From the IMG/VR virus record IMGVR_UViG_3300033992_000526: DNA of 59,667 bases. One strand, given 5' to 3'. The stretch's first letter is position 1. Each line of letters starts with the position of its first letter. Shown here one piece after another: positions 28,162 to 50,044 of the stretch. The position numbers and the translations under genes were made by a program. Source of the DNA: an uncultured virus (IMG/VR IMGVR_UViG_3300033992_000526) (lineage: Duplodnaviria; Heunggongvirae; Uroviricota; Caudoviricetes). The notes beneath the pieces are model-generated. The model was given only the letters and a program-made list of their open reading frames with translations, ran no database searches and was not told the origin of the DNA.

Positions 28162-28800
28162 TCAAGTTTCTCTGATCTCTTTGAGCTTACTCCAGTATTG
28201 AACAGTGAATCTATCGTACTCTGGATTTTTATCTTTTTTCACTACAGGAGTTACACAGTGGTAGACTCTGCTAGGAAAGATGACTAATCTATTATTTTTA
28301 AATTGAATAGTTTTAAGAGGTTGTTTAGTTTCCCAATCGCCGAACACAAAATCCCCACCTGTAAATTTAGATGGGTCTTTAGCAAACATATAGTTCATTG
28401 TAGCAGTGGGATTATAATCTCTATGCCAACTGTAATGATCTTCGTGGGTATATTTGCTCATTAGCATCTGACTAGAATCAGTATATAACATACTAGTAAA
28501 GAGAGAATCATTTGCTTCAAGTAATATCTGCTTAACTTCGTTGGACCAAATTCTCTGTTCAAGGTAAGTTGAAATTTGAAAATTGTTTGGTCGGGCAGCG
28601 TATTGCTGGAACAGCCACATATTCTTACTGCTCTTCGAGCCGGGACTAATAACAATGCCTTGATTACTGTTGACCTTGCTAGTAATCATTCCAGGAATTA
28701 ATCTACAAGCTTCGTTGATAATCTGCAAATTGTACACCCATGGTACAAAATCATCTATCACAATGTGGACAAATGGTTCTTTAAAAATTTCGTACTTCAT
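28162..28800 (-). CDS. 2OG-Fe(II) oxygenase (prolyl 4-hydroxylase-like)
   Basis: YSWHRD, FTGGDF, NRLVIFPS..YHCVTPV, RFT. Confidence 0.85.
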   Translation of the reverse strand: MKYEIFKEPFVHIVIDDFVPWVYNLQIINEACRLIPGMITSKVNSNQGIVISPGSKSSKNMWLFQQYAARPNNFQISTYLEQRIWSNEVKQILLEANDSLFTSMLYTDSSQMLMSKYTHEDHYSWHRDYNPTATMNYMFAKDPSKFTGGDFVFGDWETKQPLKTIQFKNNRLVIFPSRVYHCVTPVVKKDKNPEYDRFTVQYWSKLKEIRET

Positions 28801-29528
28801 TTAGGATACATGTATAACCAGATCATTGTGCTAGGCCTTGCTTCCACACATAGCAACATTTTATCATAATCATCTAAATCGTCAATTAACGGCATATAGG
28901 GATTTTTATTTCCTTGCCTAATCAGTTTAATATTGTGTGTTTCTGCAAATCGTGCAACTAACTTATCAGTTAGGCCAGGCCTATTACAGTCATGACTTTC
29001 AACCATTACTGCGGTCTTGGTTAGTTCTGGCATCACATTGAGGTCAAGTATTTCTTCTTCTGCACCTTCGCAATCCATAAAGATAAACGGATTATTAGCC
29101 GAAGCAAGGAATGATCTATAGTTGTCTATAGTGCAGTCTGTACTGAATAGAATTTTGTTTACACCGTTGGCGGCAGCATTTTCTCTTGCAATGTCCACAG
29201 CAGTTTTGTTTACATCAAACACTATGGTTTTTGTCTGTGTTCTTTTTGCCAAACCAATACCATAGTAACCTTCAGCACATCCTATGTTTAAGATTAGGTC
29301 GTGCGGTTGATTAATAACTCGTTCAATGTCTTCAAATAGTTCACATTCATATAACCCTAGTAATTTGCTAGCACAGTCGCCATCGCCCCAGCTAAACTTG
29401 TGCAAAATTTTCATTGCTTGAAATGGACCTCGATGTACGAATCCCTGTGTTCGTTGATACACTAATTCTGTAAGTTCTGCTCTACGTGCCCATGAGGCTT
29501 TGATATAGTTGTTTTTAACTTCTGACAT
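28797..29528 (-). CDS. SAM-dependent methyltransferase (FkbM-like)
   Basis: LNIGCAEGYYG, FMDCEGAE, VESH. Confidence 0.75.
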   Translation of the reverse strand: MSEVKNNYIKASWARRAELTELVYQRTQGFVHRGPFQAMKILHKFSWGDGDCASKLLGLYECELFEDIERVINQPHDLILNIGCAEGYYGIGLAKRTQTKTIVFDVNKTAVDIARENAAANGVNKILFSTDCTIDNYRSFLASANNPFIFMDCEGAEEEILDLNVMPELTKTAVMVESHDCNRPGLTDKLVARFAETHNIKLIRQGNKNPYMPLIDDLDDYDKMLLCVEARPSTMIWLYMYPK

Positions 29529-29529
29529 T

Positions 29530-30225
29530 TTAAGAATTCTTTTTTATTAGGTTAATTAGTTCGGGTGCTAAGATACTGTCAAAGTCTAGGCCTATGTTCA
29601 TTCGAATACCAGTGCTAAACTTATGTACACTATGCCACTCGAGATGATTGAACACATACCAATACCCTGGCTCTATTTGGGCACTGACCACATGTTCGAT
29701 TTTATCTAAGTCTGGTATTCTAGTAGTGTGAATAATCTCGAATGGCTCTTTTTCTCGATACCATCTAGTCTCTTCTCCGTTACCTTCGAGTAGCATAAAC
29801 AGAGAACTTTTTCTTTTATGACCTTTATGGGGCGGCAGGATTTCTCCTCCGTGGCTAATTTGGAATATAGGAACTGGCTCGCCGGGAGTGGGTTCTTTTA
29901 AAAAGTCCGGAGTTAGTGAAAGGAATTCAGAAGTATCATGTTCTGTAAGAAAATATTGAGTAAAGTTAATAACATTACTTTCTGTAAAGTATTCCTTGAT
30001 TTGCCTGCCTCGTCGAATCAATTCTCTTGAATCTTCAATTCCTATTAAATTAAAAGTATCTCTTGGGTTATTTCTAGGGTCGTTGTAGTTATTTCTAAAA
30101 ACAAGATTGTCTATGCTAAGTTTAACTTGACCTAACAGATCCTGACAAAAATCATCTGCAAATTTTAAATTTGTTTTGTATATGTATTTGTCAGCATCAA
30201 CACCTGATATTATAGTTTTAATCAT
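29530..30225 (-). CDS. Cupin/2OG-oxygenase-like protein
   Basis: LPPHKGH...WYVFNHLEWHSVH...R. Confidence 0.55.
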   Translation of the reverse strand: MIKTIISGVDADKYIYKTNLKFADDFCQDLLGQVKLSIDNLVFRNNYNDPRNNPRDTFNLIGIEDSRELIRRGRQIKEYFTESNVINFTQYFLTEHDTSEFLSLTPDFLKEPTPGEPVPIFQISHGGEILPPHKGHKRKSSLFMLLEGNGEETRWYREKEPFEIIHTTRIPDLDKIEHVVSAQIEPGYWYVFNHLEWHSVHKFSTGIRMNIGLDFDSILAPELINLIKKNS

Positions 30226-30238
30226 ACTTTACTAAATT

Positions 30239-30339
30239 TGGTACGGTCGGTAGGCTTCGAACCTACAAGGGCGTCGTCTAGGACCGTGCCCGTTCCCCTC
30301 AGTGGACCTTGGGAGCTTTTCCAATTTGCTCACGACCGC
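30239..30339 (-). tRNA. Atypical 101-nt tRNA-like RNA (Leu-type frame, non-canonical anticodon arm)
   Basis: GCGGTCG/CGACCGT acceptor, A73, encoded CCA, GTAGG-TTCGAAG-CCTAC T arm, AGC-AAATTGGAAAA-GCT D arm, long extra arm; no 5-bp/7-nt anticodon hairpin. Confidence 0.7.
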
Positions 30340-30341
30340 AA

Positions 30342-31136
30342 TTAATTATAACTTATTTTCTTCTCCGACGCAAGTCCTAGAAATATCAAAATTTGGATAA
30401 CGTATCGACCGGGGTCAAACTGCCACCATTCTTTTCCAATTTTCCAACTTCCGGGAGTAGTGTGATGGTTATAGTGCCAACCTTCGCCAAATGTTAAGTA
30501 CGACCACCACCAAACATTATGTGACTGATCTCTATGGTCGGTTGCAACGCGAGTACCAAACATTGGGCTATGATCAATCCAGTTGCTCAACCTAGAAGCC
30601 ATCGTGTTAAAAAATACAGGAATAATGTAGAGGAACACAGCAATTATTGGATCAATTGCTACCAATACTGCTACAACCAATAAGACTATCGGCATATAGT
30701 ATTCGTGCATAAATCTATGAACAGGATCGTTGATAATATCTTTTACAGACCATTTGTTAAATTTGCCGCCGTAGTTACCAACAAAAGCACCTATTGGACC
30801 TAGTACTACTGGGCTGTGTGGATCGCCAGGCTTATCTGCAAATTTATGATGTTCTCTATGTACAAAAACCCATCCTACTGAGCTACCGGTGCAGCCTAAA
30901 TTTCCAAAGAAGCTAAACAAATACTCTAAGGGTTTCCAAAGTCGATATGATTTATGAGTCAGCAATCTATGAAATGTAACTGTAATGCCTAAACATGTAA
31001 TTAAAAAATATCCAAATAGAGCAAGCAACCAATTGCTCCAACTAACGGTTGTAGTTAGTGCCCACACAAACACTCCTGCAGATACGAGTTGCATTAAGAT
31101 AAAAAACCATTCCCTTGGATAAAAATACTGCTTCAT
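30342..31136 (-). CDS. Membrane fatty-acid desaturase (delta9/OLE1-DesC type)
   Basis: His boxes HRLLTH, HREHH, HYNHH; GDPHSP; GEGWH; start moved to MKQYF (31148 is an alternative). Confidence 0.9.
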   Translation of the reverse strand: MKQYFYPREWFFILMQLVSAGVFVWALTTTVSWSNWLLALFGYFLITCLGITVTFHRLLTHKSYRLWKPLEYLFSFFGNLGCTGSSVGWVFVHREHHKFADKPGDPHSPVVLGPIGAFVGNYGGKFNKWSVKDIINDPVHRFMHEYYMPIVLLVVAVLVAIDPIIAVFLYIIPVFFNTMASRLSNWIDHSPMFGTRVATDHRDQSHNVWWWSYLTFGEGWHYNHHTTPGSWKIGKEWWQFDPGRYVIQILIFLGLASEKKISYN

Positions 31137-31149
31137 TGGATACCCCATA

Positions 31150-31161
31150 TATAAATATTTA
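31150..31161. promoter_or_regulatory. Overlapping divergent T4-late-like promoters
   Basis: TATAAATA on + (31150-31157) and TAAATA on - (31156-31161) between divergent genes. Confidence 0.55.
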
Positions 31162-31173
31162 ACCGTTTTTAAT

Positions 31174-31791
31174 ATGTCTGAATTTATTTTAATTGCCTTT
31201 TCGTCTTTGTCGGAGCAACAACGTCTATACTTTTTTGATTTTTGCAAAGCTGCTAGCCTAGAATCTGATCAACCTGCAGCAACTAACATGTGGGACGATA
31301 ATTGGGAAGAAGCTCCACATACCTTACCGCATGTGTTACTAAAAACTGATCGATTTTCAAACGGCAATGGTGAATTTTATGTACTAATTAATGGAGAAAC
31401 TATTGCTGCTTGCGGTGGAGTTTATCTAAGTGAATTTAACAAAGGCATCAGTTTAGCTGGAACTCGCACATGGACTGCAAAACAGTTTCGACATCGTGCG
31501 TTAATTAGAGATTACATTCTCCCCAAACAAAAAGTATGGAGTATGAATAAAGGCTGTAAACAGGTAGCATTATGCTTTAATGATTACAATAAAAATATAA
31601 AGAACATTTTTTACAGAACTCGCCTTGGAGAACAAACAGGTCGAGTATTTCAGAGATCCCCGGAACATTTATTCTTTTCTAACATAAACGAACTACCCTT
31701 CCTTGTAAATATACAGTACACTCCGCAATGGGTGCTGTACGAAAAAATAGACGCAACCTGGGAGTTTGATTGGTCAGTGCTCAAAGCATAA
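31174..31791 (+). CDS. GNAT-like hypothetical protein
   Basis: FYVLINGETIAACGG...GTRTWTAKQFR pattern resembling GNAT motif A. Confidence 0.45.
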   Translation: MSEFILIAFSSLSEQQRLYFFDFCKAASLESDQPAATNMWDDNWEEAPHTLPHVLLKTDRFSNGNGEFYVLINGETIAACGGVYLSEFNKGISLAGTRTWTAKQFRHRALIRDYILPKQKVWSMNKGCKQVALCFNDYNKNIKNIFYRTRLGEQTGRVFQRSPEHLFFSNINELPFLVNIQYTPQWVLYEKIDATWEFDWSVLKA

Positions 31792-32228
31792 TCTTTGGTA
31801 TAATATATTTCCTAGTATGGACGCTACTGCTATACTGGATGCATCGTGCTGCCCATGTAGTACCATTCCTAAAAACCTATCATGTTGGACATCATCAGTT
31901 TATCGTTAATAATGAACCAACCTGGCATTGGACTAATATTTTTATTTTTCAGGATAACAAAGTCAGTACTATAGATGTTTGGTTAACTGAAATTATACCA
32001 ACTCTATTGTTTTGCTATATTACAGGACAATGGTGGATTGCTGTGATATTTTATATATGGTCTGCATTTATTCAAGAAGCAATCGAACACAATCGAACCT
32101 TTGATATCTTTCCATTGAGTACTAGCGGAAAGTGGCACCTAGTTCATCATTTTAACGGACCGTATAATTATGGGATATTTCATCCCTTCTGGGATATATT
32201 ATTTAGAACTTATAAGACTGTACCGTGA
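31770..32228 (+). CDS. Sterol desaturase / fatty acid hydroxylase family
   Basis: YWMHRAAH, HVGHH, HLVHH, NYG..HPFWDILFRT. Confidence 0.8.
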   Translation: MVSAQSIIFGIIYFLVWTLLLYWMHRAAHVVPFLKTYHVGHHQFIVNNEPTWHWTNIFIFQDNKVSTIDVWLTEIIPTLLFCYITGQWWIAVIFYIWSAFIQEAIEHNRTFDIFPLSTSGKWHLVHHFNGPYNYGIFHPFWDILFRTYKTVP

Positions 32229-33448
32229 AAATATTAATTCCGTCATTGAATGCAAATCTGCTGTGCTGTCTACAATCTTTAAATGATTTGTTAATAGAGT
32301 ACGATGTTGTTATCGCTACTGACAACACTGAATTTGACTTTCTTATTAGAAAACTAAAAGGACTTATTCCTCAAAACAATATTAAAATTTATAATAGTGA
32401 ATTGACCTACGATTCTACTACCCATAGTAGGTTTGAAATATTTCTTAAAGAATTGATTAAAGTTGAAGAGTACTGTTACATATTGCCTACTATGCCTGAT
32501 TATATTAATCATGTAATTGCATCATTAAACTCAAAATTTAATTTGCCAGGGATAAAACTAGAACAATCAGCACTGTGCAATAAAGAAGCATATTATAAAA
32601 TTTTTGAAACTATTGGAATACCGTATCCTAAAACTTTTATAGATAACACTTCGTTAAAATTTCCTGTAGTTGTTAAACCGTCAGCAGGAACAGGTAGTAT
32701 AGGTGTTAAAGTAATTTTTAATAATGAACAGTTGACGCAATTTTTTGATATTGATAAACACGCTTTACCAAAAATTGAATTCTGGAAGCAAGGCTACTTT
32801 GATTTTAATAGCAACTATATTATACAAGAATTTATAGAAGGTGAGTTAATCACAGTTTCTGGTCGAGTAGTTGGTAGTCAAATTACGTTTGATTCAATTT
32901 TTGATATAGAATCATCTCCCCCGCCGTGGTGCACAGAATTAGTGTTTCGATTTCCTTCTAAAATTTCTCGTAGTGTTATTGAAAAAATTAAAGAACAAGC
33001 AGCCCAATTTTTACAACATATTCAATTGAATGATTCACCTTTTTTATTTGATGTGATTATTAGTGATACTGATTTTTATTTTATTGATTTTGGTATGAGG
33101 GTCACAAACAATCCCCAAAAACCATTACATTCTTTGTGTAAAGAATACACCGGGTTATGGGTCATTTCTTTACTAAACAACCAACAGTACCAGCCAATAT
33201 TTGACGGTGCTTGCATTTATCATAATTTTAATTTTCCTGCAGGAACAATATCAAACATAGAATGCAAAAATAACACTGCTAATGAATTAGTATTACCAGA
33301 TATCGGAAAACGAATATATCCGTCTAGACACGATATGCTAGCGAACGAGAAAGGTTATTTTATTATTGCAGATAAATCGATCACTGAAGTATCTAATCGT
33401 GCTAACAAATTGTTACAGTCTATCTGCATAGAATATAAAAATGATTAA
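32225..33448 (+). CDS. ATP-grasp domain protein
   Basis: FPVVVKPSAGTGSIGV, IIQEFIEG, YFIDFGMR. Confidence 0.85.
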   Translation: MKILIPSLNANLLCCLQSLNDLLIEYDVVIATDNTEFDFLIRKLKGLIPQNNIKIYNSELTYDSTTHSRFEIFLKELIKVEEYCYILPTMPDYINHVIASLNSKFNLPGIKLEQSALCNKEAYYKIFETIGIPYPKTFIDNTSLKFPVVVKPSAGTGSIGVKVIFNNEQLTQFFDIDKHALPKIEFWKQGYFDFNSNYIIQEFIEGELITVSGRVVGSQITFDSIFDIESSPPPWCTELVFRFPSKISRSVIEKIKEQAAQFLQHIQLNDSPFLFDVIISDTDFYFIDFGMRVTNNPQKPLHSLCKEYTGLWVISLLNNQQYQPIFDGACIYHNFNFPAGTISNIECKNNTANELVLPDIGKRIYPSRHDMLANEKGYFIIADKSITEVSNRANKLLQSICIEYKND

Positions 33449-34094
33449 TAGATTTTTAGATCCAGCTAATGTTGATGATGTAAAGCAACTAAACGAAATA
33501 CTCGATCTTTATTTGCAAGGAGAATTTCAACGAACTAATCCTATATACGCATATAAGAATCAAGTAGGTGTTGTTACATGGATTAAAGACACGTTTAATA
33601 AAGCATCTCAAAATGATTTTATTATAACAGGACAGTTTATCAATGGCAGATTAGAACAAATATTTGTTGCGTACAAGTTAGAAGTAGTTTGGGGCATTAA
33701 AGAAAGTTACTGGCCTTATTGGTGCGTAGGGTTAGTATATTTCAGAGAAACATCCTGGGCTACACCTGCTGATAAAATTTTATCAATAGAAGCATTATCT
33801 ACTTCATTCTTTGAAGCACAAGGATATTATACTGGGTACATGGTAATTAAAGCACCGAAGGGTTTAGTAAACATGACTGATTTTTCTAAGGCAGACGAAT
33901 ATATTGACAAAGTGTTTACAAAAACTATTCCGGGGCTGACTCATAATTTTAGAGTAGAACAGATATTTAGATCTCAACAAGATTTAGATTCTTTTAAATT
34001 TAAAGGTCTTAGTTTTATTTTACCAAAGTCTATTTTGGGCCCGGTAGTTTTATTATCATTCACGCTTAAACACCAATATCGACTGTGCCGGTAA
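33441..34094 (+). CDS. GNAT-like hypothetical protein
   Basis: ITGQFINGRL...FFEAQGYYTGY; similar to 36793-37410 and 43615-44187. Confidence 0.45.
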   Translation: MINRFLDPANVDDVKQLNEILDLYLQGEFQRTNPIYAYKNQVGVVTWIKDTFNKASQNDFIITGQFINGRLEQIFVAYKLEVVWGIKESYWPYWCVGLVYFRETSWATPADKILSIEALSTSFFEAQGYYTGYMVIKAPKGLVNMTDFSKADEYIDKVFTKTIPGLTHNFRVEQIFRSQQDLDSFKFKGLSFILPKSILGPVVLLSFTLKHQYRLCR

Positions 34095-34102
34095 ATAGCA
34101 GC

Positions 34103-34887
34103 ATGTTTAATCCTATCCTTAAAAACTTGAAAGAAGTGCCTAACCTTCTGCTAATATTAACACCGACTTTGCTGTTAGGTATGTGGGCCTGCTATGATAT
34201 TGTTGCAAACTATGAACATATTAAACTAATATATTTCTTGCTAGGATATTTTGTAATCAACATTATCGGAGTGACTGCCGGACTTCACAGGTATTTTAGT
34301 CATAGAAGTTTTAAAGCAAGTAAATGGAAAGAACGCCTCATGTTGTGGGCCGCAGTGATTGCAGGACAGGGTAGTCCTGTTTGGTGGGTAGCGTTACATA
34401 GAGGATATCATCACCGGTGCAGTGATACTGAATTAGATCATCATAGCCCTATACATGGGTTTTGGCATAGCTTTATCCTTTGGATGTACCGCATTAAACC
34501 CTCCGCAGTTAATTTTAAATATGCAATCGATTGCCTTCGTAATCCAGATGTAGTACTCACTATAACAAAGTTTGGGTAGTTTCTAATTTGATATTTTTAA
34601 TTATCAGTTGGGATTTCTTTTTATATTTCTCCATACTGGCTGCTTTTGTTACCTTAATCACGTATAATATTACTAATAGTTTAAATCATACACCTGGCTT
34701 TGGATATACAAATTTTGATACTAAAGATAATAGTATGAATGTTTGGTGGCTCTGGCCATTTGTATTCGGGGAAACATGGCACAACAATCATCATGCCAAA
34801 CCTGGAAAAAGCTACCTTGGTGTTAAATGGTGGGAAATTGACCCAGCCGGAACATTTATTAAGATGTTCCAAGATCGAAAAAAATGA
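34103..34887 (+). pseudogene. Fatty-acid desaturase split by a frameshift near 34555
   Basis: HRYFSH and HRGYHH in the first frame, HNNHH/WWEIDP in the second; HYNKVWVVSNLIF continues in the second frame from 34558. Confidence 0.8.
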
Positions 34888-36785: not shown

Positions 36786-36792
36786 ATAAGAC

Positions 36793-37410: not shown

Positions 37411-37639
37411 AGAAGAATTGCTAGAAATTATTTCTTATCAAACGGCGGTTACAAAACATACTATTACTAGTAGTCAATCTTGGAAAGAGGCAGGAATAGA
37501 CAGCTTAGACACCTTAGAGGTTATGCTAACTGTTGCAGAAAAATTTGGTGTAACTATCGAAGAAGAGGATGAAGAAAAGCTGGTAAATTTTAACGAGCTG
37601 TTATTATATCTTGAAGGCAAAATCTCGGATAAATATTGA
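37400..37639 (+). CDS. acpP: Acyl carrier protein
   Basis: 79 aa acidic; GIDSLDTLEV phosphopantetheine site; EKFGVTI. Confidence 0.88.
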   Translation: MNIKEELLEIISYQTAVTKHTITSSQSWKEAGIDSLDTLEVMLTVAEKFGVTIEEEDEEKLVNFNELLLYLEGKISDKY

Positions 37640-37656
37640 ATTATAGGAAGCCAGAT

Positions 37657-38016: not shown

Positions 38017-38017
38017 C

Positions 38018-39509: not shown

Positions 39510-39510
39510 G

Positions 39511-40389: not shown

Positions 40390-40390
40390 A

Positions 40391-41827: not shown

Positions 41828-41828
41828 G

Positions 41829-42710
41829 ATGTTTCTAGCACATAGGTCAGATATACATAAGGACGGGTTGCGTCCACTATCTCAGTGCGACAATAAATTA
41901 GTGTTGGTCAATACAGACTCTCCTTATATGCAAAGCAATATTTGTCCGCATCAAAAGAGTTTAATCTCTACAACAGAACAGCAAGGCATTAGAGTATGTC
42001 CGTATCACGGTCTAAGTTTCGACTTTGCCGGCACGGTGATAGTAACAGAGCGTGCTAATAGACTCTGTCCAAATCACACTGCATTAACAAATACAGATGC
42101 ATTTGTCTGGAAGGAATTAATATTTTCTAATCAAGTTGAATGCGAAGATTTGAATTTTATTGACTTTAAAAATTTTAGTCTAGTAGAGCAACGGGTAGAT
42201 ACTGTTAACAGTAATTTTAAAAACGTCATGGATCTATTTTTAGATGTCGACCATATTCCAATAGTACATTCAGGTGTTTATGATCGAATAGGATTTAAAT
42301 TATCCACCGATGTCATTTGGAAATATTATTCGTTTGGTAATCTTCAATTAGTAAAGAATGATAGTCAGTGTCCTGAATTTGCGGGTACATTACTAGACGA
42401 AGATAAAAATAATCCTTATAGGGCAGCATGGCTTTCTATATATCCAGGAACAATGATTGAGTGGCAACCGGGTGCGTTGTTTATCACAGTTGCTACAAAT
42501 CAAACTTCGTCTCAGGCAAAGGTGCATGTTTTTAAATACAGAGACAATAGATATAATGACACGAATTGGAAAATTAATGAAGAAGTTTGGGAACTTGCAT
42601 GGAAGCAAGATAAACAGCAAGCTGAATTATTAACCGAATTTAATCAAGACAACTTAGAGAAATCTAAACAACATTTTAGAGACTGGCTACATGACAAGCA
42701 AATGGAATAA
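41829..42710 (+). CDS. Rieske 2Fe-2S oxygenase (ring-hydroxylating-like)
   Basis: NICPHQ...CPYHG Rieske ligands; DVDHIPIVH mononuclear Fe site; QD. Confidence 0.8.
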   Translation: MFLAHRSDIHKDGLRPLSQCDNKLVLVNTDSPYMQSNICPHQKSLISTTEQQGIRVCPYHGLSFDFAGTVIVTERANRLCPNHTALTNTDAFVWKELIFSNQVECEDLNFIDFKNFSLVEQRVDTVNSNFKNVMDLFLDVDHIPIVHSGVYDRIGFKLSTDVIWKYYSFGNLQLVKNDSQCPEFAGTLLDEDKNNPYRAAWLSIYPGTMIEWQPGALFITVATNQTSSQAKVHVFKYRDNRYNDTNWKINEEVWELAWKQDKQQAELLTEFNQDNLEKSKQHFRDWLHDKQME

Positions 42711-43623
42711 ATTTAACTTAGATGTTAATGGCATAGGCCAGGATAATTGGATCAAATATCATTTTAACGGAAATCGAACTAGAGTAAATCCCAAAGATAA
42801 TTTTGAAGTAACATTTACAAAGAAAGCAACATCTGCTCCTACATTTAATACTGCTTGTAAATTAGTAGCAGAAGAGCTTTATGAACTTAATAGACACCAA
42901 ACTATATTTGTTCCAATGAGTGGTGGGTGTGATAGCGAAACAGTTGCAGATACCTTTTTGCAGTTAAAGATTCCGTTCACTCCTATAATACACGAAGTTT
43001 GGTCATTGGGACTTCAACTAACTTATGCAGATTCTTGGTGGGCGTATCGTTGGTGCAAAAAACATAATATCACTCCGATTGTAAAAAATACAACTACGTT
43101 GGAAATGTTTGCAGATATTAAGCCATTAATTGATAAAATTAAAGGAAGAAAATTATACCCTGCACAAAATATTATATTGTCAGAGTTTGCAGTGCAACAC
43201 GACGGTGTTGTGATAAACGGTCAAGCATTTCCTGAATATTATCCCGACTACACATTAGAGTATTTGATAGATATTGTTAATGACTCTGGATTTTTTAATG
43301 AAGACGGTACAAAAAAATCAGGTTGGTTATTACACGAAGACGACTTCTATGTAGATATGTATAATCCTGGTTATCATACCTATAACTTTTTAAGCTGGAA
43401 TCCTGAGATTGTTCTTGCTTACATTAAAGAAAGAGATATGTCGTTAAACAGCGAAGAAAACAAATTTAAGATAATGAAAAAAGATCCTCGTCCTAAGATC
43501 GGTGCTCCCGATGCAGTGTGGCATTTGTTAAAAGAATATCAACACAAGCTGAAGAAACAGTACGGGACCAGTGAGTTGTCGTTTATTGGAACTCACGAAG
43601 AAATGTTTAATATTTTAACGTGA
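42691..43623 (+). CDS. PP-loop (adenine nucleotide alpha-hydrolase-like) protein
   Basis: VPMSGGCDSE. Confidence 0.6.
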   Translation: MTSKWNKFNLDVNGIGQDNWIKYHFNGNRTRVNPKDNFEVTFTKKATSAPTFNTACKLVAEELYELNRHQTIFVPMSGGCDSETVADTFLQLKIPFTPIIHEVWSLGLQLTYADSWWAYRWCKKHNITPIVKNTTTLEMFADIKPLIDKIKGRKLYPAQNIILSEFAVQHDGVVINGQAFPEYYPDYTLEYLIDIVNDSGFFNEDGTKKSGWLLHEDDFYVDMYNPGYHTYNFLSWNPEIVLAYIKERDMSLNSEENKFKIMKKDPRPKIGAPDAVWHLLKEYQHKLKKQYGTSELSFIGTHEEMFNILT

Positions 43624-44187
43624 TCTAAATTCTAATTTAAGAACTCGCTGTTTAATTAGTGTTGCATCGGGTTTTAATTCTTCCCCCATTAACTTCCAAT
43701 ACAGTGATTGATCGGGTTTAGTATTTGGGGGGACAACATCTAATGTTGATAAGTGATACCTTCCTACCTGCATAAAAGAATTCTTTTGCCACTGTTTGTC
43801 GTATACTCTTGATATCTTTTCAGATATTGCATAGTAGTATGTATAACAATTTTTAGACTCTGCAATTGCAAATGCTTCTTTAATCATCATACTCAAATCT
43901 GGATGGTTAAAACTAAAATACGATTGTTGCCGGCTAGAAAAAAAACAAGGGACTACCCAAAATTTTCCTCGTAAGCTACTGTCATATATTCCCATCGATA
44001 TCCAACTCACTAAATCATTATTTTCAAAATAGCCAATTGCAAAATTTGTATCATTTGATTCGAAGAACTTCTGATATCCTTCTATAAATGATTGGTCACT
44101 AATTGCCACTGTTCCGCCAATTTTTGGTCGTAACTGTTTGATTTTTAAACAGGCATCAAAGTGTTCGGGGCCTAATATCTTTATCAT
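43615..44187 (-). CDS. GNAT-like hypothetical protein
   Basis: AIGYFENNDLVSW...AFAIAESKNCYTYY; start moved to MIKIL to avoid overlap with the divergent gene. Confidence 0.5.
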   Translation of the reverse strand: MIKILGPEHFDACLKIKQLRPKIGGTVAISDQSFIEGYQKFFESNDTNFAIGYFENNDLVSWISMGIYDSSLRGKFWVVPCFFSSRQQSYFSFNHPDLSMMIKEAFAIAESKNCYTYYYAISEKISRVYDKQWQKNSFMQVGRYHLSTLDVVPPNTKPDQSLYWKLMGEELKPDATLIKQRVLKLEFRSR

Positions 44188-44220
44188 ATCAACGTACTTA
44201 TCCTTCAAATAAATACCAGT

Positions 44221-44979
44221 ATGAAAATCTTCTCCGCATCTGCAGATACTATTACCAAGGTACAAATTACTACAGGAATTTTATCAATTATTGGACTGTT
44301 TTATTTTGATTTTACAATGACTAATATGTTCTTAATATTAGCATCGTTTTATGTATACGGAGTTTTTGGTATTGGTATTACACTGCACAGATACTATACT
44401 CACAAATCATTTGAATTTATTCATCCTGCAATTAAATGGCTCTTTACATTGTTTGCAATACTGGCTGGTAGAGCAAGTGTACTAGGTTGGGTATATGTTC
44501 ATCGATTGCATCATGCATATTCGGACACTGATAAAGATCCCCATGGACCTAAAACAATAGGATTTAAACCATTCGGCTTTAAACATATTGAATCTAACAG
44601 CGGTAAAGTTAACGTGTTCATGATAAAAGATTTAATGAATAAAGAGCAAGTGTTCATCAACGAATACTACTATGCAATAATTATTGTATGGTTATCCATT
44701 CTAGCAATGATAGATATCAATCTCGTTTACTTTACATGGATAGTTCCCGTCTTTCTAGTACAGATGAGTCAGAATATCTTTAATTATGTTGGTCATAGTT
44801 ACGGATATAGGAACTACAAAACAACTGACACTAGCACTAATAACGCATTACTATGGCCTTTAATTATGGGAGATGCGTGGCATAATAATCATCACGGTAA
44901 TCCTAAATCAGCTACTACTCACGAAAAGTGGTGGGAGATTGATCCTGCAGGTATTGTGATTAAAGCTATTTCTAAATGA
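44221..44979 (+). CDS. Membrane fatty-acid desaturase
   Basis: HRYYTH, HRLHH, DPHGP, GDAWHNNHH, WWEIDP. Confidence 0.9.
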   Translation: MKIFSASADTITKVQITTGILSIIGLFYFDFTMTNMFLILASFYVYGVFGIGITLHRYYTHKSFEFIHPAIKWLFTLFAILAGRASVLGWVYVHRLHHAYSDTDKDPHGPKTIGFKPFGFKHIESNSGKVNVFMIKDLMNKEQVFINEYYYAIIIVWLSILAMIDINLVYFTWIVPVFLVQMSQNIFNYVGHSYGYRNYKTTDTSTNNALLWPLIMGDAWHNNHHGNPKSATTHEKWWEIDPAGIVIKAISK

Positions 44980-46430
44980 AGGCAATTATATTTGGGGATA
45001 ATTTTATCCCCGCAGGTATACACAGAGTAGGAATTGCTAGGACAACTGGGGCTCATAGAGTTGCTACGTTACTGAGAAAAAAAGGTATTGACACAGAAGT
45101 AGTTGATTTCTTTTTAAGTTTTAGTCTAGATGAAATATTTCAAATACTAAGCCTGTATGATAACGATTTAAAATTTATAGGGTTTAGTGCCAGCATCACT
45201 TATTATCCTAAAGGCAAAATAGATTCAGTAGTTAAATTTATAAGAAAAAATTTACCGTGGGCAAAAATTATAGTCGGCGGAACTAATGTCTATGCAAAGG
45301 ACGCACCCGGGGCCGACTTATATACAGAAGGATTTGTTGAAGAAGCAATAGACGATATCGTTAGATTTGTAGAAGATCAAGTACATTCTATGCAAATTGA
45401 ATCGTTTAATGGAAAGCCTACTGTAAAAGTCACGCATACATATCCATTGGTAAACAATCAAAAATTAGAGACTATATATCAAGCTAGCGATTTTATTTCC
45501 CCTAATGAGACATTAGTATTAGAATACTCTAGAGGATGTATTTTTAAATGTAAGTTTTGTGATTTTCCGTTAATAGGCAAAAATAAAAACGATTATCTTA
45601 GAGAAGATGAAGATATATTAAAAGAACTTATCAGAAATTACAATCAATGGGGAACAACACACTACATTATCTCAGATGATACATTTAACGATAATGAATT
45701 AAAAGTCGATAGCTTATTAAGAATATCCAAACAACTTCCTTTTAAATTGTCTATCATGGGGTTCATTAGAGCTGATTTAATGCATGCCAGAGGCACTACT
45801 GTTGATAAACTAGTAGAAGCAGGATTTAAAGCCATGCATTTTGGAATAGAAACATTCCATCCCGAAGCTAGTAAACTAATAGGAAAAGCATTTAGCGGAT
45901 CTAAAATGAAAGAATATTTAACTAGTGTTAAACAAAAACATCCTAACTTGTTCTTACATTCTAGTTTTATTGTTGGGCTACCATACGAGGATGCACAATG
46001 TTTAGAAGATACATTTAATTGGTGTGATACTTCAATGGTATTAGATGCATGGTCAACATATCCATTGAATATCCCTGCAAAAAGCGGAATGGTACTAACT
46101 TCATATTTTGCAGATAACTGGAGATTGTACGGATACAAAAAAATTGAAGAAGATGATATACGTATTATTTGGGAAAATAAACATTTTAATACATATACTT
46201 CTGAAAAACTATCAGCAGAGCTCAACGCAAAAAGATACAATAACAAAAAGATAAATCCGTGGTCAGCATTTTCAATTACTGTACACGGATACGATATAGA
46301 TCAATTACTAAAAGAGAATAAAAATAATTTAGATGTTCCTGATCTTATAAACAAAGCCGCTAAATTTGTAGACGTTTACAAATATAAAAAATTAGAATTT
46401 TTTAAAAATAAATTTAATCTGCAAAAATAA
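44976..46430 (+). CDS. B12-binding domain radical SAM protein
   Basis: IIVGG, EYSRGCIFKCKFC, DDTFND, HFGIET, FIVGLPYE. Confidence 0.9.
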   Translation: MKAIIFGDNFIPAGIHRVGIARTTGAHRVATLLRKKGIDTEVVDFFLSFSLDEIFQILSLYDNDLKFIGFSASITYYPKGKIDSVVKFIRKNLPWAKIIVGGTNVYAKDAPGADLYTEGFVEEAIDDIVRFVEDQVHSMQIESFNGKPTVKVTHTYPLVNNQKLETIYQASDFISPNETLVLEYSRGCIFKCKFCDFPLIGKNKNDYLREDEDILKELIRNYNQWGTTHYIISDDTFNDNELKVDSLLRISKQLPFKLSIMGFIRADLMHARGTTVDKLVEAGFKAMHFGIETFHPEASKLIGKAFSGSKMKEYLTSVKQKHPNLFLHSSFIVGLPYEDAQCLEDTFNWCDTSMVLDAWSTYPLNIPAKSGMVLTSYFADNWRLYGYKKIEEDDIRIIWENKHFNTYTSEKLSAELNAKRYNNKKINPWSAFSITVHGYDIDQLLKENKNNLDVPDLINKAAKFVDVYKYKKLEFFKNKFNLQK

Positions 46431-47019
46431 CGTATTCTTGATACCGTTTTGCATTCTCGGTTATGATGCTTTGATATGCATCTTCTTTTGGTTTTCCAAA
46501 ATATGTGATTAAAATTTTACTGTGTCCAAAATACCAATCAGTTCCGTGTTTTCTTTTGTGGTCCCAATAAGCCCAAGTGTTTGTATCCGAAGGTAATAGT
46601 TGATATTCTCTTTTAGTATCTTTTAGGTAATAAAAATTAGGACGCACATTATTATCATATACTAGCGACCTTACACTTAAACTTTCTGAATCATAATCGG
46701 TGTGCGGAAGTACTGCTCCCATGCTAGAAACAAATCTTACTACTTCTATATCAATAGGAAACTTGTCTAGATTATCAAAGATAGATGGAAATAGTTCTGG
46801 ACAGTTTAAATTTTTAGATTTGTATTTTGTAGTTTCTTCTGCGTCAACTCCGGGCTTTACCCAGATATCAAAACCTCTCCATGGTGCAGCATTAGTATTG
46901 TGATTAGTTTGTATTTTTTGTACAGGCTTAGATTCTTTATACCATAGTGACCACCAATTATCCCAATTAATTGGTTCAATCCTGGGCATGTGTAACGGAG
47001 TTGAAAGTATATTCTGCAT
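46414..47019 (-). CDS. Cupin/2OG-oxygenase-like protein
   Basis: VLPHTD...LPSDTNTW...KHG; similar to 47019-47651. Confidence 0.5.
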   Translation of the reverse strand: MQNILSTPLHMPRIEPINWDNWWSLWYKESKPVQKIQTNHNTNAAPWRGFDIWVKPGVDAEETTKYKSKNLNCPELFPSIFDNLDKFPIDIEVVRFVSSMGAVLPHTDYDSESLSVRSLVYDNNVRPNFYYLKDTKREYQLLPSDTNTWAYWDHKRKHGTDWYFGHSKILITYFGKPKEDAYQSIITENAKRYQEYVIFAD

Positions 47020-47651
47020 TAATTATAGATAATGTAATCTTTGTACTTTTCAATACTTCTAGACATAAGTTCTAAATGTTTATCAGTATCTAATCTTCCT
47101 GCAATGAACATGGTAATTTTTCTATATTCTGCAGGTGCTATGAAAGATCCATGATAGCCTACATGGTTGTTTAATACAAACCAATCAGTGTCATTGGGTA
47201 GTACAGGAAACACAGGTGATAATAAGTTTCTAGGTCTTTGATCGTATTGTACAATATCGGGATTAGATGACGTTGGCAGCACATAGAATGTTTCTAACAT
47301 GTCACGCATTACTAAATTTTTATAAGCAGTGGGTCCTAATTCTCCATCAGCTAACGATTTAGCTATTGGATCTTGGTGCGGCTTATTATTGACTATCTGC
47401 TCTCTAAAATCAAAATGTCCATTATTTTCATAATCTAACAGCGGCAATGCTCTTAATTTTTCATCAAGGTCGGGAAACAACTTTAGCAGATCCGGGTCTA
47501 TTGGCTTGTTCATTGGTTTAAAATTTACCCAAGCCCAGTCTTGATGAGGTAGCTTTCTTGCGTCAAAGTATTCCAAAACTTTCTGTCTATCTAAATTTAA
47601 CTTAGGCAAATCAATAGGCATTAGTATAATATCTTTTAAATTCATCTCCAT
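47019..47651 (-). CDS. Cupin/2OG-oxygenase-like protein
   Basis: PIDLP, KPHQD...LPNDTDWF...YHG. Confidence 0.5.
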   Translation of the reverse strand: MEMNLKDIILMPIDLPKLNLDRQKVLEYFDARKLPHQDWAWVNFKPMNKPIDPDLLKLFPDLDEKLRALPLLDYENNGHFDFREQIVNNKPHQDPIAKSLADGELGPTAYKNLVMRDMLETFYVLPTSSNPDIVQYDQRPRNLLSPVFPVLPNDTDWFVLNNHVGYHGSFIAPAEYRKITMFIAGRLDTDKHLELMSRSIEKYKDYIIYN

Positions 47652-49069
47652 CCTCGATTTATTATTGTTTTTAATTTTTCTTTATATGTAGAAATAAAAG
47701 GATCTTTCCTTGCCATTACTAACATAGCCCAATCTTTCCAACCGTATTGTTTAATTTCTTCCTTAGTATACCCTAATGAATAAAGCGAAGAAGTATAAAA
47801 TCCAGTCATAGGCCAAGTCGGTTGCAAGATATCATTAAACTCGTGTGATAGTGCTTCGTGCAGTTCGTGATTATTTTTGGGGTCTCTAGTATCTTCCCAC
47901 CCCATGACTTCTGCATCTCCAGATTGATCGTCAGAATTTTTCCAATATGCTTTCTTTTTTAGAAAAAACTTTTCGGGATTATTTGCAAACTCAGATTTTG
48001 GCAATATGACAAGTCCTCGAAAATATCCTCTTATAAAATTATTCTCTTTAATCCAATCTACTGTTGATCTAAGATGGGGTATATCTTCTCCAGGTAGTCC
48101 TGAAATAAAACTTGCTTCGATACCTACTTGATTTTTCCAGAGATCATTGTGTAATTTAGGTAAGTAATCTTTTCCGTGTTTAGCATTCCATCCCTTTCCT
48201 ACCTTTCGAGCAGCTTCTGGATGAAAACTCTCCATGCCAAAGTATACCTGGTCTACTCCGCTTTCCAACATTAGATTGTGATTTTCATGGCTCCATATCA
48301 AATCTGCACGTACAAAGCCAGACCATCTAATTTTATAATCAAGTTGTTTGTTTATATTAGCAATCTCAGCTATCTTATCTTGATCTTCGTTGCAGGTATC
48401 GTCTAAGAAAACATAGTTAGTAGTTCCAAATACATCTCTGTTTCGTAGCATTTCATTTAATAAGTATTCAGGTTTCCTAATATATGACCCTTTAGATTTA
48501 CCTAGATTTGGATACGTACAGAAACTGCACTTAAAAATACACCCTCGACCTAATTCTATAGGAACTGCTTCATCGGGCATAATACAATCATCTTCGTGAA
48601 ATGTATGATCGTTTTGAGTTATATCAAAAACAGAATTTGGCAATGCTACTCCCATACTCTGTTCTTGACACCATTTTAGAAATTGGTCTTCACCTTCCCC
48701 GACAAATGCACGATCTAACATCTTGTAATTGTTAGAGTACGGCCCACCTCCTACAATTGGAAGATTTGGAAATTTCTTTTTAAAATACTGTATTGCTATC
48801 ATAATAGCCCCGGGCGGATAAGAACTATCTGCGTTCCAAAATACTGTAGTGAGTGCAATACAAACAGTGTCTTTAGTTATTAAAGGCTCTGTAAATTCAA
48901 TAATTTCTTTAGCAGTAAAATGTTGTAAGAAATCTATAACCTGACATTGAAATCGATTCTTCCGCATCCAATGAGCTAACGCATATGCGGCCATTGGACG
49001 CTGCATAGTTGGCAGTTTTTCGTAAGTAAAATTCGGCCAGACACCGCTCCAAAATATTATATTTCTCAT
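47642..49069 (-). CDS. B12-binding domain radical SAM protein
   Basis: VGGGPY, ELGRGCIFKCSFC, LDDTCN, YFGMES, FISGLPGE. Confidence 0.9.
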   Translation of the reverse strand: MRNIIFWSGVWPNFTYEKLPTMQRPMAAYALAHWMRKNRFQCQVIDFLQHFTAKEIIEFTEPLITKDTVCIALTTVFWNADSSYPPGAIMIAIQYFKKKFPNLPIVGGGPYSNNYKMLDRAFVGEGEDQFLKWCQEQSMGVALPNSVFDITQNDHTFHEDDCIMPDEAVPIELGRGCIFKCSFCTYPNLGKSKGSYIRKPEYLLNEMLRNRDVFGTTNYVFLDDTCNEDQDKIAEIANINKQLDYKIRWSGFVRADLIWSHENHNLMLESGVDQVYFGMESFHPEAARKVGKGWNAKHGKDYLPKLHNDLWKNQVGIEASFISGLPGEDIPHLRSTVDWIKENNFIRGYFRGLVILPKSEFANNPEKFFLKKKAYWKNSDDQSGDAEVMGWEDTRDPKNNHELHEALSHEFNDILQPTWPMTGFYTSSLYSLGYTKEEIKQYGWKDWAMLVMARKDPFISTYKEKLKTIINRGWR

Positions 49070-49120
49070 ATAACGTATTTAAACAGTTTGGTAACCTATG
49101 TTAACTTTTCTATAAGCTAG

Positions 49121-50044
49121 TTAATCTGGTCGCTGAAAGTATTTCAAAGATACTTTAGAACTTTTTAATTCTTTAATAAATTCAAAGTAAGGAATAAGCA
49201 CAGCAGTCTTTCTATACAAATTTCCAACAGTTAGTTTTAATTCAGGATTAGATGGTTCGTTTTTCATAAAAGGAACATTTTCCCATCCGCCAAACTTTGG
49301 GAAGTATAATAATTCGTCTTTCCAATACTTTCCATAAATTATTGGTTTAATATAATAGTCCCATCTATCTACACTATCTAAGTGAAAGTTTTCCTTGCAC
49401 AGCCCATTTCCGTCAAAATATCTATGAGTATGCATTGCCGATTGATAAACATCATCATTTAAAATACTATAAAGAAATTCTGATGGATCTCCGTAAGGTA
49501 TATACTTTCCTTTTCTTTTTAATAACTCCATTGATCGCATTCTCGCTACCTCGGGACTGTGATATCCTTGATAAAAATAAAACTTATTGTCCGGAGTAAT
49601 ATGTACAAATGGATCATGAATCATTTGAATGACATCGGCGTCGTCAGGTAAAAGTCTAGTAAAAATACTCTGCATTACTTGCACAGGATGGATACATTGA
49701 TCCTGTGCAATTTTCATTACTTGTTCCTCGTACTGTATCGGATCTAAATCAATAATATCGATGCGTACACCGTACTTCTTCTTAACTAATTGCAATTGTT
49801 CGTATTCTATATCATTATACCCCGGCATATAATAAAATACACAGTCGAGCGGAATGCCTTGAGTAAAGAAACTGTGTAATACACTCTGACTATCAACACC
49901 CGAACTCATTCCTAAAATCAACTTGTGATGATTTTCTGCAAGTTTTCGAGCCCTTCTATCTGACTCTTCTCGCATGTTTCCTGGCACCCTAGTTAATGCT
50001 GGGAATTCTACATAAAATTGATTGTTTTCGAAGCCGTAGTTCAT
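49121..50044 (-). CDS. PP-loop-like protein
   Basis: LGMSSGVDSQ; C-terminal PKFGGWE. Confidence 0.55.
   Translation of the reverse strand: MNYGFENNQFYVEFPALTRVPGNMREESDRRARKLAENHHKLILGMSSGVDSQSVLHSFFTQGIPLDCVFYYMPGYNDIEYEQLQLVKKKYGVRIDIIDLDPIQYEEQVMKIAQDQCIHPVQVMQSIFTRLLPDDADVIQMIHDPFVHITPDNKFYFYQGYHSPEVARMRSMELLKRKGKYIPYGDPSEFLYSILNDDVYQSAMHTHRYFDGNGLCKENFHLDSVDRWDYYIKPIIYGKYWKDELLYFPKFGGWENVPFMKNEPSNPELKLTVGNLYRKTAVLIPYFEFIKELKSSKVSLKYFQRPD

Follow-up and report, generated by a model that had tools for sequence, protein, structure and literature searches.

What does a giant phage make, if it makes any single thing, with a block of acyl carrier, desaturase and radical S-adenosylmethionine (SAM) genes? 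The question arises from a stretch of DNA of 59,667 nucleotides, which we call the window, from an uncultured virus of the Caudoviricetes (IMG/VR record IMGVR_UViG_3300033992_000526). Based on the listing of open reading frames (ORFs) and on family scans, positions 28162-50044 of this jumbo-phage contig form a 22-kb, enzyme-rich island of 26 genes. The original prediction, drawn from the letters of the sequence, took the island for a modified-lipid pathway, and this stands in part: an acyl carrier protein (ACP), a phosphopantetheinyl transferase (PPTase), a ketosynthase and SCD1-type desaturases support it, but the 22 kb are not one fixed pathway. The gene classes it listed are all present at the places first given for them, as annotation with Pfam and NCBIfam hidden Markov models confirmed. 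Our answer is that carrier-protein acyl chemistry is the best-fitting theme for the island; its core appears to be a carrier-protein unit under selection, and the island as a whole is a mosaic of cassettes that recur, reshuffled, in many aquatic phages. The nearest virus record to the window, which we refer to as G001, has 228,849 bp at an estimated completeness of 65%.

The ACP (37400-37639, + strand) is recognized by PF00550 (PP-binding) at 29.9 bits against a cut-off of 20.8, as had been predicted, and has its attachment site at Ser35; the D34-S35 motif is invariant in all nine aligned phage ACPs. It does not score as an orthologue of the housekeeping AcpP, for which the best models gave 36-41 bits against cut-offs of 66-106. 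The relatives that we found lie only on metagenome contigs of phage size: the exact sequence is present on 45 contigs, the longest of 380,947 bp, and ten more clusters have 65-96% identity. Given the length of this contig and the size of G001 at its estimated completeness, the source is a jumbo phage. Scans of viral contigs with single proteins, either the ACP or the desaturase Des3 described below, returned only the window's own contig.

Around the ACP lies a first unit of about 5 kb with the order GNAT-ACP-(unk126)-Des3-AspH-small radical SAM-B12 radical SAM, in which the GNAT is a protein with the fold of the GCN5-related N-acetyltransferases. Its order and strand are kept in the two closest relatives with enough flanking sequence, L302 (6,070 bp) and L304 (7,341 bp, from a marine assembly), at protein identities of 51-58% for the GNAT, 56-60% for the ACP, 59% for Des3, 66-68% for AspH, 72% for the 292-residue radical SAM and 60-66% for the B12 radical SAM. 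In both, an AcpS-type PPTase of 97-99 aa follows directly after the orthologue of the B12 radical SAM (PF01648 at 52.1 and 54.3 bits, cut-off 25). Random shuffling of the genes between relatives with no co-conservation is therefore not what we found, since the seven-gene order is kept in these two. The closest protein relatives of the ACP, Des3 and the B12 radical SAM (95-61% identity) share sizes of the longest contig (122,219, 17,751, 138,935, 11,389, 10,392 and 5,955 bp), which is a hint, and not proof, that the three genes co-occur there as well.

The phage of the window has an AcpS-type PPTase of 101 aa away from the island (G001:33771-34076; PF01648, 29.1 bits), and a FabF-like ketosynthase of 408 aa is encoded in G001 outside the island (Pfam, 124 and 107 bits). 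Inside the island, family scans with Pfam and NCBIfam found no ketosynthase and no nonribosomal peptide synthetase (NRPS), Pfam found no crotonase/CarB-type or polyketide synthase (PKS) gene, and there is no precursor peptide gene for a ribosomally synthesized and post-translationally modified peptide (RiPP), as no free ORF space is left in 28162-50044. The original prediction had noted the absence of a ketosynthase, NRPS or precursor peptide, which is true of the island, but a ketosynthase is found elsewhere in the same phage. A phage that keeps an ACP, a PPTase and a ketosynthase is investing in acyl-carrier chemistry.

The ketosynthase gene lies in a block of auxiliary metabolic genes outside the window (L221; G001:C1:54000-70000), where its neighbours are genes for ClpS, HSP20, a haem oxygenase, two ferredoxin-dependent bilin reductases, CsgF and CsgG, together with an SPFH protein, a cupin, a cytidylyltransferase, a PfkB kinase and a FecR-like protein. 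The block is a mix of cyanophage-like and pelagimyophage-like accessory genes.

Three proteins of the island have a GNAT fold. The first gene of the conserved cassette (36793-37410, +) overlaps the ACP gene by 11 nt, and its assignment is based on structure-atlas matches (TM 0.61-0.70), an AF2 model with pLDDT 80 searched with Foldseek, and its orthologues in L302 and L304. A second GNAT-fold protein, of a family that we call unk205a (31174-31791, +; AF2 pLDDT 90, Foldseek), is the first gene of a 15-gene run. For the models of both proteins, every listed Foldseek match is a GNAT or an acyl-CoA N-acyltransferase, with probability 1.0. The third (43615-44265, -) is placed in the same family as 36793-37410 by homology, namely a shared match to L025:2561-3154 and a family alignment. 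Comparison of the unk205a family with the family of 36793-37410 by hhalign was not significant and detected no kinship between them. The unk205a GNAT is the tightest partner of the desaturases, being adjacent to one in 8 of 15 genes of its family and within 3 kb of one in 13 of 15.

The island has five SCD-type desaturase loci, four intact and one split into two ORFs, so the four delta9-type desaturases first reported were one too few; coordinates are listed here for Des1 to Des4. Des1 (30342-31148, -; PF00487, 52 bits) has three His boxes, and its start is uncertain, at 31148 or 31136 and not at the TTG at 31247, with relatives aligning from residue 38. Des3 (38018-38758, +) has 57 bits to PF00487 and 119 bits to NF049918, and Des4 (44221-44979, +) has 59 bits to PF00487. 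Des2 (34085-34887, +) is the split gene, owing to a 10-nt deletion near 34550. In G001, Des2 is whole, with 10 extra nt and an open frame of 275 aa, and the 10 nt are present behind 34550 in contigs of 4/4 lake-water runs (run X1 may be the source sample). At the deletion site, 34550-34556, the missing 10 nt lie between short direct repeats. What this assembly shows at Des2 is either an artefact or a rare variant.

Des1, Des3 and Des4 each carry the boxes HxxxxH, HxxHH and HxxHH, which in Des2 are divided between the two ORFs. Ten His are invariant in 35 phage desaturase sequences, eight of them in the three boxes; H183 is invariant, and the consensus shows NxxxH. The profile of these 35 sequences aligns with SCD1 (PDB 4ymk) at E 8.6e-40 (positions 11-252 to residues 51-301, 241 positions), and by this measure the island desaturases are true SCD1-type enzymes. 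With the DesA equivalog of NCBIfam, whose cut-off is 400 bits, they reach 85-119. The island desaturases are 2.7-3.4 tree units from each other and 0.46-1.5 from their counterparts in other phage contigs, as measured in a FastTree phylogeny of 155 sequences. With the paralogues farther from each other than from these counterparts, they are old separate lineages and not recent duplicates. A sixth desaturase is present in G001 far from the island (locus L222, G001:3000-17000).

Hydrophobic segments in the island are confined to the desaturases and one further enzyme, plus one borderline segment in unk217 (33441-34094). The further enzyme is a membrane di-iron enzyme of the FA_hydroxylase family (31770-32228, +; 152 aa), with 54 bits to PF04116, His motifs and two hydrophobic segments, which agrees with the sterol-desaturase-like gene named at the outset. 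A tblastn search with Des3 against 50,697 phage records gave three matches, Pelagibacter phage Mosig (33%) and two Acinetobacter phage records (24%), with no cyanophage among them, which points to a low background frequency. Elsewhere in IMG/VR, a 17.7-kb locus (L002) has eight desaturase genes in about 13 kb, five of them in tandem at 11451-15265.

All five radical SAM proteins of the island have the CxxxCxxC motif. The largest (34884-36785, +; C182-x3-C-x2-C) matches the solved structures of the cobalamin (Cbl)-dependent C-methyltransferases TokK (PDB 7kdx; E 7.9e-61 over about 420 residues) and CysS (9n1b; E 7.3e-35). Its W66 aligns with W76 of TokK and W75 of CysS, the Trp beneath the cobalamin. 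Like TokK, ThnK, CysS and KedN5, it has a Cbl-binding part with this lower-face Trp, the motif NRGCPY.C.FCDWGS and part of the C-terminal domain. It differs from them in reaching only 155 of the 700 bits required for NF033712 and in sitting in a phage among lipid-type neighbours; by sequence it is a relative of the TokK/CysS/KedN5 class and not a named member. According to the accessible text of PMC12846815, the substrate bound by CysS has a pantetheine tail, and a carbapenam is methylated three times by TokK.

The original prediction counted four B12 radical SAMs, and there are four such genes, but only 34884-36785 can be firmly predicted to be a cobalamin-type methylase. The other three, 40391-41827 (+), assigned by Pfam, NCBIfam and family search, and its paralogues 44976-46430 (+; 29% identical to it) and 47642-49069 (-; 36% identical to it), have a mutual identity of 29-36%. 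They belong to a different, large and mostly phage-borne family from that of TokK and CysS, and their B12 domain is assigned at the level of the family: the Pfam B12-binding match is below the cut-off or absent, and PF02310 is found in many homologues. The family of 40391-41827 comprises at least 1577 protein clusters at E<=1e-10, of which the best 120 are all metagenomic and lie on contigs of up to about 363 kb. A tblastn search with 40391-41827 against the 50,697 isolated-phage records found no match. A scan of 185,579 species genomes gave 94 relatives, with 9 of the 94 cellular loci near full length at 28-40% identity, mostly on small contigs of metagenome-assembled genomes (MAGs), in two strains of Enhygromyxa salina and in a Burkholderiales MAG. 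The remaining cellular relatives have 21-27% identity and are chiefly from Planctomycetota, including Kuenenia. Enhygromyxa salina (L224/L226) has the closest relative in a cultured bacterium (29-30%), beside a DUF3050/haem-oxygenase-like iron enzyme and two glutamine-dependent asparagine synthases, which is possibly a cellular counterpart of the pairing of radical SAM and PP-loop genes in the island.

The fifth radical SAM (39511-40389, +; 292 aa) has a core nearest to GDGT-MAS/Tes, MoaA and TrsS. Its best match to a solved structure is Tes (PDB 7tol; E 1.3e-20), where the alignment with the 526-residue chain is confined to the radical SAM core, residues 18-192. It had been called MoaA-like, and MoaA is indeed matched at E 2e-11, but the NCBIfam scores are all far below their cut-offs (TrsS, 103 bits; MoaA, 79 against 284; Tes, 74 against 450). 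PADLOC found no defence-system match beyond the superfamily level, only generic ones (pVip, 52 bits on the small radical SAM; candidate PDC-M51A, 38-56 bits on the B12 radical SAMs). Among related loci, we also noted a radical SAM family of about 411 aa that is absent from the window and has an unusual order, with an N-terminal SPASM domain (residues 11-75) ahead of the radical SAM core (123-276). It is found in 25/79 B12-centred and 12/80 desaturase-centred viral loci (for example, L025:14075-15331 and L112:14203-15477).

We propose that an acyl chain carried on the phage ACP is tailored and then passed by a GNAT to an amine acceptor, yielding a membrane lipid, and we would put the probability of this at roughly 45%. 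The phage PPTase would attach the pantetheine arm to the ACP. A fatty acyl chain would then be built or loaded on it, possibly by the host fatty acid synthase and perhaps with the FabF-like ketosynthase of the phage, a step that we infer entirely. The radical SAM enzymes would modify unactivated carbons, and the TokK/CysS-class enzyme would methylate a pantetheine-borne substrate, which fits because the substrate of CysS has a pantetheine tail. Since the GNAT gene adjoins the ACP gene, it offers a natural acyl-transfer step, in which the acyl group would go to an amine acceptor to give an amide-linked lipid. Membrane desaturases of five lineages, the FA-hydroxylase and the AspH/LpxO-like hydroxylases fit an editing of the resulting lipid chain in the membrane, and the ATP-grasp and PP-loop enzymes might make or amidate the head group. 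The sequences show the gene families, their catalytic motifs, the packing, a partial co-conservation, and a carrier protein, a PPTase and a ketosynthase together in one phage; on what substrate and in what order the enzymes act, what they make and what it is used for, we infer.

What weighs against this reading comes both from the enzymes and from the gene order in relatives. A loading enzyme, either an acyltransferase or an AMP-ligase, was not found in G001, and AMP-binding, Fer2 and CobS_N gave no match there either (the record is about 65% complete, so absence from the phage does not follow). None of the three GNATs has a match to PF13444 or another OlsB-type Pfam family, no acyl-ACP-using subfamily fits them, and their nearest folds are polyamine and small-molecule acetyltransferases. 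The SCD/DesC-type membrane desaturases are known to use chains attached to CoA or to a lipid and are not known to use acyl-ACP. Neither TokK nor CysS has a lipid as its substrate. The models of radical SAMs that act on lipids all stay below their cut-offs, with HpnR at 27 of 650 bits, HpnJ at 24-72 of 578 and TIGR04072 at 33-79 of 360. The comparisons with HpnP/HpnR, with glycerol dialkyl glycerol tetraether (GDGT) enzymes and with ladderane clusters that were offered at first hold at the superfamily level only: GDGT-MAS/Tes, HpnP/HpnR and TIGR04072 act on unactivated lipid carbons, and Tes is the best structural match of 39511-40389, but all island scores are far below the curated cut-offs, and of Tes no more than the radical SAM core is covered by the 292-aa protein.

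As for gene order, it varies among relatives along with the strand, and the more distant ones reshuffle everything; L306, L307, L312 and L313, for instance, have a B12 radical SAM and then three tandem desaturases. The strict order of the first unit was found in 2/78 metagenome loci and 0/78 IMG/VR loci, which are small numbers. Homologues of the ACP are present in 3 of 161 other viral loci searched (L004, L005, L140) and in 2 of 78 metagenome loci. A second unit, GNAT(unk205a)-Des4-Des1-PP-loop-Rieske-PP-loop, is compact in L081-L083, with an AMP-binding enzyme added in L083, and in the window its genes are scattered across 20 kb. Given these differences in order and strand, and the four strand switches within the island, the island may hold several unrelated functions.

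We examined three samples of relatives for co-conservation. The first consists of 78 IMG/VR loci centred on relatives of 40391-41827, of 308 found, and contains desaturases in 27, the 49121-type PP-loop gene in 12, AspH in 9, FA-hydroxylase in 8, the small radical SAM in 7, the TokK-class gene in 5 and ATP-grasp in 2, with the ACP, Rieske, methyltransferase and 2-oxoglutarate (2OG) oxygenase genes in none of the 78. Clustering of the ORFs of this sample, with the window's own locus included, gave AspH-like genes in 30 of 79, desaturases in 27, the radical SAM-SPASM family in 25 and PP-loop genes in 21. The second sample, of 80 viral loci found by a degenerate DNA pattern for the third desaturase His box, has 126 desaturase ORFs; AspH is present in 15 of the loci, radical SAM-SPASM in 12, the 31174-family GNAT in 11, PP-loop in 10, ketosynthase in 8, NifU in 6 and the ACP in 1. 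The third, of 78 metagenome loci, has desaturases in 32, AspH in 13, PP-loop in 13, the small radical SAM in 10 and the ACP in 2. The co-conservation that was looked for is thus present between desaturases and relatives of the B12 radical SAM, in 27/78 viral and 32/78 metagenome loci. Seen from the other side, a B12 radical SAM is present in only 9-10 of the 80 desaturase-centred loci, and 77 of 120 B12 radical SAM genes are in loci without a flanking desaturase, which is why we regard the island as a mosaic and not as one fixed pathway.

These last two counts also support the strongest alternative, in which the island is a hypervariable pile-up of independent auxiliary genes with no common product, the desaturases alter the fluidity of host phospholipids, and the radical SAM, oxygenase, PP-loop and GNAT cassettes have separate targets of their own. 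The scattering of genes that are compact in L081-L083 and the strand switches are what it would lead us to expect. In the accessible part of Zaragoza-Solas et al. 2020 (PMC7029224), pelagimyophages and cyanomyophages have a hypervariable host recognition cluster with radical SAM cassettes by the tail fibres, and this island likewise lies beside tail fibre genes and glycosyltransferases. The vFADs of cyanophages are proven stand-alone delta-9 lipid desaturases, as the available text of Roitman et al. 2017 (PMC5776448) has it. Independent genes do not account well for a seven-gene order that is kept at 51-72% identity in L302 and L304 and closed by a PPTase. Nor do they account for the packing of the island, which has a coding share of 99.1%; neighbours in the 15-gene + strand run 31174-43623 overlap by 4-22 nt or are spaced by 1-7 nt. 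A phage ACP with a PPTase of its own has no role in plain phospholipid desaturation, and five to six long-diverged desaturase lineages exceed what a shift in fluidity needs. On balance we consider this alternative unlikely, although it deserves to be taken seriously.

A second alternative keeps the carrier and drops the lipid, so that the product would be an amino-acid-, aromatic- or beta-lactam-like metabolite tethered to the carrier in the manner of carbapenem or cystobactamid, and would serve as an antibiotic or signal. The alignment of 34884-36785 with TokK over about 420 residues, its Trp66 at the place of Trp76 and the pantetheine tail of the CysS substrate (PMC12846815, accessible text) all agree with this. 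So do the amide-forming ATP-grasp and PP-loop enzymes, the three GNATs and the several 2OG oxygenases of the island, and the relative in Enhygromyxa salina beside two asparagine synthases and a DUF3050 iron enzyme. The thienamycin cluster has three B12 radical SAMs, 2OG oxygenases, a PP-loop beta-lactam synthetase and a GNAT. We nevertheless hold it to be improbable. The TokK-class gene is rare in relatives (5/78 loci), the crotonase/CarB-type, NRPS and PKS genes looked for with Pfam are missing, and the PP-loop proteins are closer to MnmA, NadE and GuaA than to asparagine or beta-lactam synthetases. The most constant partners are membrane desaturases of the SCD type, which are out of place in such pathways.

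The island could also work on the outer envelope of the host, remodelling lipid A, lipopolysaccharide or another glycolipid together with the neighbouring glycosyltransferases, so as to block superinfection or change a receptor. The island has glycosyltransferases and a nucleotide-sugar epimerase as its immediate neighbours on the left (20586-28025; glycosyltransferases at 21758-28025), LpxO, which hydroxylates lipid A, is a member of the AspH family, and alteration of the surface is proposed for the pelagimyophage island in the accessible text of PMC7029224. The match to the LpxO model is weak, however, at 20 bits against a cut-off of 500. Inside the island Pfam found no lipid A or sugar-nucleotide enzyme, and the genes of the left arm are common to 0/78 related viral loci. 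The glycosyltransferase block is also parted from the island by a tRNA gene and by composition: GC per gene is 0.30-0.39 in the island and 0.40-0.47 in six flanking genes, and in sliding windows it is 0.315-0.352 fully inside 31-50 kb and 0.352-0.452 outside the island, mostly at least 0.375. With this, and with the coding share above, the description of a tightly packed, AT-richer block proved accurate. A role in the envelope appears quite improbable to us. Modification of peptides or proteins, whether a RiPP-like product or virion or host proteins, by hydroxylation, C-methylation, acetylation and ligation is very improbable, because the presence of an ACP, a PPTase and five membrane desaturases speaks against it and the 99.1% coding share leaves no space for a precursor peptide (the largest gap, 116 nt, has a tRNA-like remnant), although AspH/P4H-type hydroxylases, B12 radical SAM methylases, ATP-grasp enzymes and GNATs have protein-modifying members, RiPP radical SAM families are weakly matched (37-46 bits) and radical SAM-SPASM genes are frequent in related loci (25/79).

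Returning to tailoring on the ACP, the closest logic is that of the ornithine lipids, in which an acyl-ACP-dependent, GNAT-like N-acyltransferase, OlsB, is followed by hydroxylases of the AspH/LpxO and FA_hydroxylase families (OlsC/LpxO, OlsE) that modify the lipid. The island has PF05118 and PF04116 domains and GNAT-fold proteins, but no OlsB-type (PF13444) match, only the low LpxO score and no OlsA, and the ornithine-lipid system has nothing that corresponds to its desaturases, radical SAMs or PP-loop enzymes. With vFAD, a phage-borne delta-9 lipid desaturase, the island shares the presence of delta-9/SCD-type membrane desaturases as auxiliary genes of an aquatic phage, but vFAD is a single stand-alone gene, and here there are five to six diverged paralogues with an ACP, GNATs, hydroxylases and radical SAMs. 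With the pelagimyophages it shares a large non-syntenic island by tail fibre genes and glycosyltransferases, an AspH-family gene (AspH is part of the core in pelagimyophages and cyanomyophages in the accessible text of PMC7029224) and CsgF/CsgG in the same genome. The ACP, PPTase and multiple desaturases set it apart from the pelagimyophage cluster as that portion of the source describes it; the cluster is defined as lying between VrlC and gp14 in a T4-like genome. A search of G001 for Gp23 (PF07068) gave no match, and its control had no match either, so a T4-like nature is not shown.

It is doubtful, but worth stating, that giant aquatic phages might have a self-sufficient carrier-based lipid pathway, with their own ACP, PPTase, ketosynthase and acyl-transferring GNAT, that makes a lipid class unknown from cells, in which an amide-linked acyl chain would be poly-desaturated by several specialised enzymes of the SCD type, hydroxylated and C-methylated or cross-linked by radical SAM enzymes, for the membrane of the infected cell or for the virion. 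If true, phages would run the multi-step synthesis of a compound of their own and not merely tune host metabolism. The "auxiliary" lipid genes known from phages are single desaturases (PMC5776448 and PMC7678222, in their accessible text), and the cassette here joins an ACP, a PPTase, a GNAT, desaturases, a hydroxylase and two radical SAMs. A full-text literature search, with subscription journals outside it, gave no description of a phage island that joins an ACP, a desaturase and a radical SAM, and none of lipid-related radical SAMs in jumbo phages. The enzyme families of the island, the B12-type family of 40391-41827 among them, are large, unstudied and common in lake and marine phages, so that unexplored C-H chemistry could be drawn from them, and possibly also membrane lipids that are new to environmental lipidomes.

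The remaining genes of the island are mostly oxygenases, ligases and proteins of no assigned family; ten island ORFs have no Pfam match. Four to five oxygenases are of the AspH/2OG type. The AspH/LpxO-family Fe(II)/2OG hydroxylase of the first unit (38751-39509, +) has 40 bits to PF05118 (Asp_Arg_Hydrox) and invariant H167, D169, H214 and R224. Two distant AspH-type cupin oxygenases (46414-47019, -, and 47019-47651, -) were assigned by hhalign; their family has an invariant HxD...H and aligns with an AspH-like profile at 80% and E 1.4e-5. At the left edge is a P4H/PKHD-like 2OG-Fe(II) oxygenase (28162-28800, -; PF13640, 2OG-FeII_Oxy_3, 44.6 bits; phrog_61). It is followed by a class I SAM methyltransferase (28797-29528, -; MTS/Methyltransf_25, 27-29 bits) and by unk231 (29530-30225, -; 231 aa), which has no Pfam, NCBIfam or PHROGs family and is a possible cupin oxygenase (hhalign to the AspH profile, 41% over 30 residues). 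A homologue of unk231 with 50% identity lies between two B12 radical SAM genes in L223. The Rieske non-haem iron oxygenase, alpha-like (41829-42710, +), has 34 bits to PF00355, 23 bits to PF00848 and the motifs CxH-x15-CxxH and D-x3-D-x2-H-x4-H. The ATP-grasp ligase (32225-33448, +) is amino-acid-ligase-like, with 51 bits to PF13535 and weak matches of the PylC/Ddl/BacD type. These ATP-grasp, Rieske, 2OG/cupin and methyltransferase genes had all been named beforehand, and Pfam matches them, apart from the two cupins found by hhalign.

Two genes have PP-loop motifs, SGGCDS in 42691-43623 (+), which has orthologues of 73% identity in L081-L083, and SSGVDS in 49121-50044 (-); each is assigned by motif and profile. 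A profile of 24 relatives matches MnmA (2.4e-7), the NAD synthetase NadE, the GMP synthase GuaA, TilS and QueC, and 7-10 of its 24 members match PP-loop Pfam families; the two are PP-loop ATPases of an undescribed subfamily. The 49121-type gene was found near B12 radical SAM genes in 12/78 loci by tblastn and in 24/81 by phmmer. Like the GNATs, the PP-loop genes, which have no Pfam match, had been proposed beforehand, and profile search and fold comparison bear both proposals out. The two last proteins, with no Pfam, NCBIfam or PHROGs family, are unk217 (33441-34094, +; 217 aa), for which hhalign against the GNAT profile was null, and unk126 (37636-38016, +; 126 aa), which is kept in L302 and absent from L304 and has weak, ABM/YciI-like leads in the structure atlas.

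At the borders of the island, we noted a tRNA-Thr(TGT) gene (28038-28113, -; ARAGORN), 48 nt from the left edge, and inside it a degenerate tRNA-like element (30239-30339, -) in the 116-nt gap. The element has an acceptor stem of 7 bp and a T arm, and its CCA end is encoded. As Arg-ACG with a 17-nt "intron", it is called by ARAGORN under the pseudogene and intron options only, and an Rfam scan of the gap found no tRNA and no other credible family. Because tRNA genes also flank the island, the element may be a decayed tRNA at an old junction. On the right, a TROVE/DUF2828-DUF7788 gene (50102-51559, -; Ro-like, phrog_850 "RNA-binding") lies between the island and four tRNA genes at 52135-53238, and the TROVE/DUF2828 family is found near B12 radical SAM genes in 7/78 viral loci.

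For the expression of the island, scans for sigma-70 promoters and for terminators gave counts at or below the shuffled expectation. The word TATAAATA, which we take to be the T4-type late promoter motif, has a single site in the window (31150-31157, +), where 8.3 are expected by chance, and 16 nt separate this lone site from the first gene of the 15-gene + strand run. With just 8 sites in the 229-kb record G001, the word is avoided genome-wide and is no general promoter here, and its placement ahead of the run may be due to chance.

An IMG/VR viral contig of 164 kb matches the window at 100% identity. The stretch is also present, with at least 91% of its sampled words, in 24 or more lake-water metagenome runs; among the 24 listed there is no RNA run. 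A megablast search of the island against the 50,697 phage records gave no match. In the left half of the window (10000-28161 searched), the only nucleotide similarity to an isolated phage is at 27404-28010, inside the glycosyltransferase gene 26868-28025, with 75% identity over 607 nt to Synechococcus phage S-CAM7. The flanks also encode tail fibres (12-9752) and a head maturation protease, as well as a QueD-like (12593-13099, -) and a QueC-like (53279-53899, +) protein, which suggests that the phage has a 7-deazaguanine pathway.

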